64,000 nt of DNA from Octopus vulgaris (taxonomy: Eukaryota), in contig OX597815.1 in the NCBI GenBank assembly GCA_951406725.2, forward strand, positions 48,546,001 to 48,610,000. Reading direction: 5' to 3'. The notes under the pieces are model-generated. The model worked only from the letters and a program-made list of their open reading frames with translations. It was not told the origin of the DNA and searched no databases. Positions 7,951 through 63,805 of the stretch are shown in pieces. Both the position numbers and the translations under genes were made by a program. How positions within the stretch are numbered: position 1 is the first letter of the stretch; each line of letters opens with the position of its first letter.

Positions 7951-10213
7951 TCAAAAAAGCTATCGGCCTATAACCTGTCTATCCACCACGTATAAAATCC
8001 TAACATCTATCCTGGCGGAGAAAACATGCATTCATGGAGAAGAACAATATTTTCCCCATTGAACAAAAAGGGTGCTGCCGAGGCTCTTACGGATGCAAAG
8101 ATCAACTGCTAATCAATCGTATGATCCTTGAGAACTGTCACAACAAGCGCAGAAATCTCAGCACCGCATGGATTGACTATAAAAAGGCCTTCGACAGTAT
8201 ACCGCATCCATGGATCTTGAGATCGCTGGACATCTTCAAAATTTCCCCTGTGATTTCAAACTTCCTGAAGCACAATATGTCATTGTGGAATACGAATCTC
8301 CAATTATACCACTCTAATGGAGTACTTGCCTCAGAAAATATAAACATCAACTGTGGAATTTCTCAAGGTGACTCACTTTCACCTTTAATATTCTGCATAG
8401 CCCTAATACCCCTTACAAGTGAATTAAACAGAACAGGGTATGGGTATAAAATTGCCAATAAAAAAATGAGCCATCTATTTTATATGGATGACTTAAAACT
8501 TTATGGTAAAGACAATAATGAACTTGAAGGCCTATTGCGCACCGTGAAAGCATTCAGCGATGACATTGGGATGGAGTTTGGACTTGAGAAGTGTGCCAAG
8601 GCCACTTTCCAGAAAGGGAAAGTGAAGACCACAAATTCAGTCGTGTTAGATGTTGACACAGTCATAAGAGAGCTTGAGCAAGAACAGACATACAAATATT
8701 TAGGGATAAATGAAGGCTCTGGTATTCAGCATGCAAGCATGAAAGAGAAAATCAGGAAGGAATGTTATAGGAGAGTTCGTGCAGTCCTGAAATCTGAACT
8801 AAATGCACGTAACAAGGTGTTAGCTATAAATTCCTTAGCAGTTCCAGTTGTTACTTATAGCTACAATGTGTTGAACTGGAATATGAGTGAAGTAAAGAAT
8901 ATAGATAGAAAAATACGCAAGCTGCTGAGTTGTAATAGGATGCACCACCCAAAGGCAGACGTAGATCGCCTTTACCTTCCCAGAGCCCAAGGAGGTCGAG
9001 GCCTGATCCAATTTGAACTAGCTTACAAAACAACCACAATTGGACTGGCCAAATATCTCGAAATATCGAATGACTGGATGCTAAAGCTCGTGGAAAATCA
9101 CGAGAGACAAAAGAAGCTTCATTCTATCATCAAGGAAAGCAAAAAATTTGCTATTGATCTCGTGCAGGATACCCAAACTGAACAACCCGAGGGAAGTACG
9201 GCAACTATTGTTGCAAAGAAGGTGAAAATGATGGCAATGAAAAAAGCGCACGAGCAATTGGCTGATAGGTGGGAGGAGAAACCTCTGCACGGCAAATATG
9301 TGACCCGCAGCAAACAAGCTGATGTTGACCAGAAGCAAACCCATCAGTGGCTGCAGAGCTCAGGGCTAAAAGCAGAGAGCGAAGGTTTCATCCTGGCTGC
9401 TCAAGACCAAAGCCTATTAACCTGGAACTACCAGGCCAATGTGATGAAAAATGGAGCAGACCTAAAATGCCGATTCTGCAATGACATGATTGAAACAGTG
9501 GACCACCTAATCTCTGGATGTAAAGTCTTAGCACTAGTGGAGTATAAATTAAGACATGACAGAGTTGGCCAATATCTCCACTGGCTAATAAGTCGGCATT
9601 ACAATATCAAAACTGCCGACAAGTGGTATAATCACCACCCTGAGGCTGTAACTGAAGGAGAAAATGTAACCATTCTGTGGGACTTTCCAGTACATACAGA
9701 CCGAACCATCAAGGCCAATAAACCAGATATTGTTGTGAAAGACCAAAACAATAAAGTTTGCTTATTGATCGACATGAGCATCCCCTGTGATCATAATATC
9801 TCAGCAAAAGAGTTTGACAAGCTCAGAAAATATAAAGACCTACTCATTGAAATTGAGAAAATGTGGCATCTCAAGGCGGTTACAATACCAGTGATCGTAG
9901 GAGCACTAGGAATGATCAAGAAGGGAACCGAAAATTATATGAGAATGATCCCTGGCTTACCATCCATGCAAGAAGTGCAAAAGATTGTCTAAACTGGTAC
10001 ATCACACGTATTGAGAAGAGCATTGTTGATGTGAGAACTGTTGCTGCTCATGTATTTTAATCTAACTTTAAAAAAAAAAAAAAAAAAAAAATGAACGAAC
10101 TTCTGAGTTTGGTTTAATGGCCTACCAATATACACTATGAGTTTCTTTGCCCTAGGAGTCGGGAAGACACTCGGCAAGAAATAGAAGAAAATTTGAAAGA
10201 AGAAAAAAAAAAG
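7951..10213 (+). mobile_element. 5'-truncated non-LTR retrotransposon with restriction-like endonuclease (Dong/R4 clade-like) inserted in (TAA)n
   Basis: Begins directly after (AAT)n at YRPITCLSTTYKILTSIL (frameshifted from the main ORF). Contains RT, CCHC and RLE domains, then a 3'UTR with stem-loop and A-rich end, followed by a long (AAT)n. Confidence 0.9.
8034..10034 (+). pseudogene. Reverse transcriptase - zinc knuckle - restriction-like endonuclease ORF (truncated; premature stop at 9990-9992)
   Basis: WIDYKKAFDSIPH, QGDSLSPLIF, FYMDDLKLY, YKYLG; CRFCNDMIETVDHLISGC; RHD...KPDIVV...LIDMSIP...KLRKY; PVIVGALG. The frame continues past TAA as TGTSHVLRRALLM* to 10034. Confidence 0.9.
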
Positions 10214-52909: not shown

Positions 52910-53258
52910 TTACACTCATACATGCACACACGTACACACAACTTTAGACAATTGCCCAGACCCATATTTTGACCACTTTTTTTTCTATTACCAACCTTTT
53001 TATTTCTTCATGTCTGTTTTTCTGTTTTGGTTTTCCATTCCATTCTTCTGGCTTCACTACCCATTTTAAATCATATCTCTGGCGAGTTAACTTGGGATTT
53101 CTTAACAATACTGTAACCTTCATTAGAAATTCGGCCTGATAAATAGCTAGTGGAACATCCCTTGTGTAATTATTATTTTTGGGGTTCTAACATATATAAC
53201 ATGGATTTTACCTGCTCCATTCCCACAATTTGGATATATATATATTCTTGTAAATATA

Positions 53259-53371
53259 ATATGTGACAATTATTCGATAGCCATGATAAAACTCTGAGTT
53301 TCAGATGTCGGGGTGAAAACCCACACTGGCATCTCTTCAGTTATCATGGCTACCGAATAATTGTCACATAT
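53259..53371 (-). ncRNA. Type I hammerhead ribozyme motif with 31-bp stem I
   Basis: Reverse complement: atatgtgacaattattcggtagccatgataa CTGAAGA gatgccagtgtgggttttcaccccgacatc t GAAA ctcagag TT ttatcatggctatcgaataattgtcacatat. Confidence 0.7.
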
Positions 53372-53435
53372 ATTTACAGATAAATTTCTCTATTTACATA
53401 ATGTCTATTTACATTCTTTTGTTGTCTTGCCATTT

Positions 53436-53650
53436 CTTATTTCTTTATTGCCCACAAGGGGACAAACAAGGACAGATACACGGATTAAGTCGATTACATC
53501 AACCCCAGTGCATATCTGGTACTTATTTAATCGACCCCGAAAGGATCAAAAGCAAAGTCAACCTCAGCAGAATTTCAACTCAGAACGTAGCGGCAGATGA
53601 AACACTGCTAAGCATTTCGCCCAGCGTGCTAACGTTTCTGCCAGCTCGCC
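53436..53650 (-). mobile_element. SINE family B
   Basis: Close match to 51365-51585. Confidence 0.8.
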
Positions 53651-53865
53651 ATTTCTATCATTATATATATACATACATACATATATATATAAACAATGGC
53701 ACCATGGAAGATGTTTATAATCCATTTAAAAACACACAAAACTGTTAGTTTCACTTCAACATTTAAATTTCATTTGTGTCAAAATATTTTCATTGCTGTG
53801 ATACCACGACCTGTTCATTGACAAAACTTTATGCTGCATCTGAGAAAGTAACAGTTAGTTCATGA

Positions 53866-62889: not shown

Positions 62890-63805
62890 TCTTCTGAAGA
62901 GGTTCCAGGCCATCCATGATGTCCATACTCGTCCTTCTCAGGGCGGCTTCCATCCCGGGAGAGGGTGCATTGATCAAATCTTTAGTCTCCAGCGAGTCCT
63001 GGAACAGCGGTGGGTGCACCAACAACCTACCGTTCTCTGCTCCATCGATTTTGTGGCTGCCTTCAACTCAGTGGATCGGGAGGCCCTCTGGCATATTATG
63101 CAGGCAGACGGTATCCCTGTGAAGCTGCTAAACCTCATACAGGGCTACTATTGTTCAACGAGGGCTCGTGTGAGGGTCTATGGTGGGGAGACGGAGTAAT
63201 TTGATGTCACTACCGGTGTTTGACAGGGTTGTGTGCTCTTGCCAACCCTATTCAATTACACCATTGATTACATTTTCAACACTGTGCTTCGGGACTACCC
63301 GGGTGTAGAGGCTGGGAGAGAAGTCATGGTGATGGGCCTGGCCTATGCAGATGACATCGTGTTCTTGGGCTCTAACCAGGCAGATGTCCAAGATGCTCTC
63401 GAAAGGGTGCATGCGCCAGTGGCAACTGTTGGTCTTTGGATCAATGCTGGCAAAACCAAAGTAATGACGTTTCTGGTCGCAGCAGATGACTGGCAGCCAA
63501 TTGTTCTCAAGGGCATGGAGCTGGAGGATGTGGAGTCCTTCGTCTACTTGGGTTCAATGGTGGTTTCAATGGGCCAGGGCACAGCCGAGGTCGAGCGTCA
63601 CATAAGTGCTGCCAGATCTGCATTCGTGCGCCTCCAGCGGTGCCTGTGGGACAGAAGAGAGATCTCCTTGGTGACCAAAGGGTGAATCTACCAGGTCGTC
63701 GTTCATACTATCCTCCTCTATGGTTGTGAAACATAGCTCATGAGGGTAGTCGATCAGTGAGGGCTGGAGGTGTTCGACAATGACTGTCTCCGAGTATTTC
63801 TGTCT
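62890..63805 (+). pseudogene. RTE-clade LINE reverse transcriptase fragment
   Basis: QGGFHPGRGCIDQIFSL, IDFVAAFNSVDREALW, GV*QGCVLLPTLFN, LAYADDIV, INAGKTKVM, VESFVYLGS, LLYGCET*; several stops. Confidence 0.9.

Follow-up and report, generated by a model that had tools for sequence, protein, structure and literature searches.

The palindrome that begins at position 53249 of the window, the whole stretch of 64,000 nucleotides of Octopus vulgaris DNA that was analysed, is very probably what remains of a Hydra-clade Penelope-like element (PLE), now dead, that was truncated at its 5' end and inserted as two arms, which were likely joined via the 5-nt stem I of the hammerhead ribozyme of the element. 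The join likely fell on the native stem I by chance pairing, so the 31-bp stem I of the window copy would be a rare by-product of insertion. The initial annotation had interpreted this hairpin either as an unusual long-stem ribozyme element or as a TIR element that captured a ribozyme. A real hammerhead with a dimer-type stem III and arms that abut the core was borne out by the present analysis. The special long-stem element and the ribozyme-capturing TIR element or MITE were not.

Anatomy of the insertion and its hammerhead core

The features of the insertion are listed below with their positions in the window and their strands.

53234..53245, no strand: target microsatellite, (AT)n, next to the short end
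53249..53289, minus: sense arm, which is the 3' end of the element from +1 (predicted cut) to the short terminus at +41, and the 3' strand of stem I
Between 53290 and 53289, minus: predicted cut at the GUU site
53290..53302, minus: GAAA box (53299-53302), palindromic stem III ACUC-A-GAGU, U16.1, and U17
53303..53333 (31 nt), minus: stem II, a long imperfect hairpin with a GAUG/CAUC base
53334..53340, minus: CUGAAGA box (C3-A9)
53341..53345, minus: junction microhomology GATAA, shared by the native stem I, as its 5' strand, and the inverted arm, as its inner end
53341..53437, plus: inverted arm, a second copy of the 3' end of the element from +1 into the long tail
53438..53647, minus: later SINE-like high-copy repeat (210 bp) within the long tail
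53657..53662, plus: final nucleotides of the long terminus (+106 to +111), with (AT)n/(AC)n beyond

The whole insert extends from 53249 to 53662 and is set in (TA)n. Starting at GATAA (53345), the sense arm includes the core and stops at +41 (53249), next to (AT)6; this end agrees with the short ends of the family. GATAA is common to both arms and is also the reverse complement of +1 to +5, so that joining at this microhomology lets stem I continue as a perfect duplex. The inverted arm is 87% identical to locus L093 and 79% identical to the young locus L122. The extent of 53249 to 53378 that had been annotated initially is too small: the 5' arm goes on to 53437, the SINE-like repeat splits it, and its end lies at 53662. 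The 9-bp duplications GCCATTTCT at 53429-53437 and 53648-53656 flank the SINE-like repeat and belong to it, and the flanks of the insert itself give only (TA)n on both sides. Judged by these flanks alone, the target is probably (TA)n and the insert appears to have no TSD of its own. The contigs assembled from eight sequencing runs represent mostly other repeat copies and none of them spans the locus. More copies of the SINE-like repeat are present in the window at about 50960, 51400, 54740, 54960, and 56310. Two ORFs of the window, at 8004-9992 (plus strand, 662 codons) and 63224-63685 (plus strand, 153 codons), exhibit motifs that resemble the RT of non-LTR retrotransposons.

The hammerhead parts follow on the minus strand in the order CUGAAGA, stem II, GAAA, CUCAGAG, and UU, and the type I core spans 53340-53290. 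All of the 11 invariant core bases of a type I hammerhead and the NUH site are present. As had been annotated, the arms adjoin the core exactly on the CUGAAGA and GUU sides, and the segments 53341-53371 and 53289-53259 are paired at 31/31 positions with one G-U (53353/53277). The pairing reaches 38 aligned positions across a 3-nt bulge (37/38 match), which corresponds to the bulged extension to about 40 bp described earlier. The 141-nt hairpin region has a folding z of -11.65 with 0/200 equally stable shuffles. The hammerhead core alone folds no better than chance (z = -0.93), and the Rfam scan of the window gave no match at the gathering score.

Stem II is imperfect (53333-53303) and has one extra pyrimidine before GAAA at its foot, as the initial annotation had recorded. 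This base is U in the window copy and C in most old copies. The G10.1-C11.1 closing of stem II is not clean in the window copy, which has the bulged pyrimidine at the foot and a G-U at best. The stem III motif is palindromic and of the dimer type as first described, and with its one-base loop it does not fold within the monomer. The core-open fold of the window RNA is predicted to lie 6 kcal/mol above the minimum, and the self-pairing of stem III in a dimer is predicted at -9.8 kcal/mol. Two other hammerhead-like cores were identified in the window by scan at 27996-27962 and 63884-63846, both on the minus strand, and their stems I of 4 and 6 bp agree with the short stems reported for the other hammerheads here. 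Both cores are unrelated in sequence to this PLE family and are candidates from the scan only.

Family, parent element, and clade

A first look at the genome of the window (2.8 Gb) gave 2186 candidates for the whole element. The 26-nt core-plus-arm pattern has 1951 exact matches genome-wide. The native upstream context (22 specified bases) has 1739 exact matches, whereas the junction of the window copy (24 bases) has only 4, with 17 at two mismatches. The reversed-pattern controls gave 0 matches each time. In the native stem I, two helices of 5 bp are separated by an internal loop, and the second is followed by a mismatch and at most 4 further bp; most copies are without a long stem. With this 5-bp stem and its interrupted extension as the family norm, the idea of a ribozyme element specialised for a long stem is not supported. 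The ancestral part is the ribozyme, to which the long arm was added.

Upstream walking in four longer old copies identified RT/GIY-YIG fragments that are colinear with the same hammerhead approximately 1 kb downstream. The search with the RT fragment led to a young sister subfamily of near-identical copies with an open frame of 717 codons, which is 71% and 83% identical to the old fragments. In this young subfamily a homologous hammerhead lies about 190 nt beyond the stop, and the two 3' ends are those of the old copies. The protein search for longer relatives gave one match only (P0003). Members of the young subfamily at L122:2823-4973 (P0004) and L115-L134 exhibit intact 717-codon frames and both tandem and head-to-head inserts of kilobase scale.

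The 717-residue frame P0004 has RWK at 46, DKT at 123, the CxCx5C linker CSCRNKELC at 566, and in its C-terminal part CGLC (CxxC) at 669 and CPH (CxH) at 700. The motif check of P0004 for GxKF/Y and CX2-5CxxC found both absent. The Hydra clade is marked by this pattern of present and absent motifs (PMC8557442). Comparison by eye counted 28 of the first 44 residues as alike between Hydra-1_Obim and P0004. Like members of the Hydra clade, the element has a single frame with RT and C-terminal GIY-YIG that is colinear with a hammerhead 3' end, and (TA)n insertion is found in the flanks of the window copy and in most copies inspected. The inverted 5'-truncated copy, the tail on one end, and the tandem pLTRs in longer copies are those of PLE insertions. 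The Pfam match of GIY-YIG to a fragment was below the cut-off (E = 0.012), the full P0004 frame had no Pfam match, and its PDB search gave nothing useful. On the motifs and the comparison by eye, we assign the window core as the 3'-end ribozyme of a Hydra-clade PLE. An assignment to the Neptune clade was rejected by the motif test. Residues 355-358 of P0004 in the RT catalytic loop are YKDD, and those in the published Hydra alignment are YRDD. Near an old copy, at L091:1-780 in the reverse-strand reading, lie fragments of a PLE that is more distant (33-49% identity to P0001/P0002).

Hydra elements and their hammerheads are already in print for an octopus (PMC8557442). Hydra-1_Obim (Craig et al. 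2021, PMC8557442) is similar in its single-frame unit of approximately 2.6 kb with RWK, DKT, the CxCx5C linker, and GIY-YIG with CxxC and CxH, in its (TA)n targets and inverted 5'-truncated copy, and in its 3' hammerhead, which starts with CUGAAGAG-AUG and whose palindromic 4-bp stem III is closed by a one-base loop. It represents a sister family with different stems I and II. In contrast to the published description of Hydra-1_Obim (PMC8557442), the window family is abundant and partly young, its tail is about 65 nt rather than 30-40, and its youngest subfamily has a CCGA core. The present analysis adds another family to the Hydra clade, together with one rare class of junction.

Arms, ends, and junctions of the insertions

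The surveyed insertions are matches to a 26-nt anchor on contig C1, taken by position to 132.2 Mb. This sample of 90 loci was drawn among the 100 matches listed, with the last 6 left out. Two loci that showed the same insert via the other arm and three identical duplicates were dropped, which left 85 insertions. No more than 70 nt from the 5' truncation point, 46/85 insertions have an inverted copy of the 3' end, and 39/85 are without an adjacent second arm. All of the 46 two-armed old inserts have one long and one short end, and no long/long or short/short insert is present among them. The long arm is inverted in 26 and the short arm in 20. The long terminus lies at +107 to +111 and the short end mostly at +41 to +48 with a few shorter; BLAST ends at +67 probably run on into (TA)n. 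Six loci scored as one-armed hold remoter or broken inverted pieces, of which four fit the end rule and two could be read either way. Fifteen young two-ended inserts were picked for long frames or opposed pairs; 13 of them have a long and a short end, and the exceptions are L120 (long/long) and L129 (short/short). The end rule is therefore found in 59/61 two-ended inserts (46/46 old and 13/15 young).

The junction of the window copy is shared by 0/85 sampled insertions, and junction positions vary widely. The 46 junctions comprise 20 that overlap by 1-9 nt, 23 with a gap or filler, and 3 that are blunt, as measured from approximate BLAST ends. Junction microhomology is thus not general in the family. 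In 31/46 inserts the short arm extends upstream of the long arm by more than 5 nt (reverse 9, equal 6). Each arm of those inserts therefore carries sequence that is absent from the other, which speaks for two cDNAs that were primed separately. Within one insert, the two arms match at subfamily-diagnostic bases (28/30, 24/26, 23/24, 25/28, and 32/41). Paired arms differ at 85/1041 compared positions and share 30 departures, 23 of which are one subfamily site. This agreement and drift point to a common template followed by free decay.

The inverted arm ends within -3..+6 of the cut site in 1/46 inserts, which is no excess, and the inserts are thus unlike copies of cleaved RNA. Sense arms are uninformative on starts at the cut because the anchor spans this site. 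The 5' truncation of sense arms clusters 60-85 nt upstream of the cut in a T-rich stretch just before stem I, with truncation points at -83/-84 in 10/85 and at -68 to -71 in 12/85 sense arms (L139-L228). Inserts repeated identically on C1 at distances of about 8 kb and 376 kb (L173, L174, and L175; L146 and L147) indicate segmental duplication or an assembly repeat. A weak bulged hairpin follows the short end in one old copy (z = -1.4), and folding of the tails at either end of one young copy found no hairpin above chance.

Among the 17 two-mismatch matches to the window junction, 15 have the stem-I junction, and L234 and L240 are without it or complex. The 15 loci belong to at least three subfamilies, and 11 are long-inverted, 3 are short-inverted, and 1 is unclear. 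Their cores are canonical in 3, U4C in 4, and broken in 8, in a two-mismatch search that favours damaged 5' boxes. Five of these loci represent one intermediate subfamily, where the native stem offers a 6-nt match. Limited re-amplification as a unit may have occurred, since 11/15 have the same polarity and five come from this one subfamily with its 6-nt match.

The proposed course of insertion is as follows. The protein of the element would nick both strands of a (TA)n site. Priming would take place at the distal start site (+111) for one cDNA and at the proximal one (about +45) for the other; both would be templated by RNA of the same subfamily, and both would stop early. The cDNA ends would then anneal at a short inverted match, here GATAA/TTATC, or be joined with filler, and repair would complete the head-to-head insert. 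By analogy, this proposal fits the two-strand cutting and two RT start sites described for Poseidon_Ac (PMC11167929). The in vitro work on Poseidon_Ac (Frangieh et al. 2024, PMC11167929) describes similar features: two internal RT start sites define the tail, targets are AT-rich, both strands are cut and extended, and hammerhead cleavage is unneeded for insertion. Poseidon_Ac belongs to another clade and its hammerhead overlaps the start codon, whereas the hammerhead here lies in the 3' untranslated end (PMC11167929). One start site per strand is not reported in the parts of that work consulted (PMC11167929). We lean slightly towards a stricter form of the proposal, an obligatory two-primer reaction in which a protein dimer would use the distal start on one strand and the proximal start on the other and the cDNAs would be sealed head-to-head, sometimes via ribozyme helices.

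Conservation of the ribozyme and alternative explanations

The conservation of the core was assessed in copies picked by upstream sequence only; 24 of the 30 copies were used and 6 were without a full alignable core. Departures from the majority were found in 8/264 cells at the 11 core positions and in 75/744 cells of stem II. The composition-matched expectation for the core is 15.4 departures (permutation p = 0.042), and the core is intact in 18/24 of these old copies. The core is thus more conserved than neighbouring bases, with a modest signal since most change is post-insertion decay. The 132 native-context copies, in which the core is fixed by the filter, exhibit one-sided subfamily changes only; no mismatch turns into a pair, and some subfamilies have lost outer stem I pairs. 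The stems of the published Hydra families differ in sequence yet pair (PMC8557442). Hydra hammerheads have a palindromic stem III, and one of them reads actc-a-gagt-t as in the window (PMC8557442). The core and the palindromic stem III that are common to distant Hydra families are the stronger argument for a real ribozyme.

The core of the youngest subfamily is CCGA(A/U)GA (U4C), with 3182 exact matches. The U4C core is present in 45/49 rows of the young-subfamily listing and CUGA in 0, and an intermediate subfamily also carries U4C. U4C lowers activity in vitro, yet it allowed viroid infectivity (PMC3088659). Single minimal hammerheads of PLEs did not cleave and dimers showed low cleavage (PMC4209133). 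The Poseidon_Ac hammerhead cleaves only with protein and is dispensable for insertion, and hammerhead core mutants still inserted (PMC11167929). In tandem transcripts of the parent the ribozyme was likely active, weakly and as a dimer, and little or no cleavage is predicted for the lone window copy. Dimeric PLE hammerheads have reportedly been the subject of a 2017 paper in RNA Biology.

The two arms could also have come from one cDNA that folded back on the quasi-palindromic native stem I and copied itself into the second arm. The native stem I is a 14-bp interrupted quasi-palindrome, self-priming has been proposed for palindromic PLE junctions (PMC3846280), and in 15/46 inserts the upstream reach of the long arm equals or exceeds that of the short arm. 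However, the window core is found only in the short arm and the tail only in the long arm, as in the 31/46 inserts with mutually exclusive sequence, and fold-back would require an extra template jump. Self-priming is highly improbable, and simple fold-back is refuted for the window copy because neither arm contains the other. MITEs are short, with inverted arms and many copies, and the inverted arms around a short spacer with thousands of related copies resemble them. A DNA MITE whose TIRs captured a ribozyme has next to no probability here. The arms are unequal (41 and 111 nt), the spacer differs in nearly every copy, 39/85 inserts are without an adjacent second arm, and TSD is not visible beyond (TA)n. 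Both supposed TIRs are the 3' end of an RT-coding element and junctions differ among copies. The MITE is refuted by the colinear RT/GIY-YIG parent; fixed TIRs and a uniform copy length were not found. The plain DNA MITE with TSDs, which the initial annotation had set against its own reading, is likewise not what the locus holds.

A selected long-stem ribozyme, whose cleavage would leave a nicked duplex that primes copying or feeds small-RNA/ADAR pathways, is highly improbable, and the counts give it no support. The junction recurs at about 15 loci, and in the window copy none of the 11 core bases is lost and the arms differ by a single substitution over 38 positions. That one difference is within the arm drift of the family (P = 0.17), the canonical core is kept at only 3 of the 15 loci, and these loci are drawn from several subfamilies in both polarities. 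The inverted arms that end near the cut (1/46), the lack of cleavage by single PLE minimal hammerheads (PMC4209133), and the core mutants that did not block insertion (PMC11167929) also stand against it. A non-LTR retrozyme, with head-to-tail non-coding units each carrying a hammerhead, was rejected as well, with a single core and head-to-head arms here and tandems only in coding copies.

PLE insertions with an inverted copy and a one-sided tail have already been described (PMC8557442, PMC3846280). The inverted-pLTR insertions of PLEs are similar in their head-to-head arms, one-arm tail, and junction overlap (PMC3846280, PMC8557442), whereas the window insert is a non-coding miniature and has its junction right at stem I of the ribozyme. 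A further known hammerhead system has a similar short native stem I, long stem II, and dimer-suited palindromic stem III, as well as many solitary truncated copies with some opposite-strand pairs 100-700 bp apart. The window family differs from it by an unpaired foot base on the 3' strand of stem II, and the window copy by a stem I lengthened by inversion in this one copy. In contrast to MITEs, the window family has no fixed TIR pair, no TSD visible beyond (TA)n, and a retroelement parent. In the open-access literature we found no explicit count of how long and short ends are paired and none of a U4C PLE wave; papers under subscription or supplements on bioRxiv may hold one.

The flagged hairpin is ordinary retroelement debris, and PLE inversions can mimic MITEs and long-stem ribozymes. 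The young intact Hydra-clade PLE and its family provide thousands of two-armed insertions, and counts on these insertions constrain the origin of the inverted ends and tails of PLEs. The U4C switch in the youngest subfamily is a natural test of whether PLE hammerheads must cleave. If the two-primer reading is true, the ribozyme would shape insertions as a structure and its chemistry would be dispensable, with U4C in the youngest wave of more than 3000 copies.
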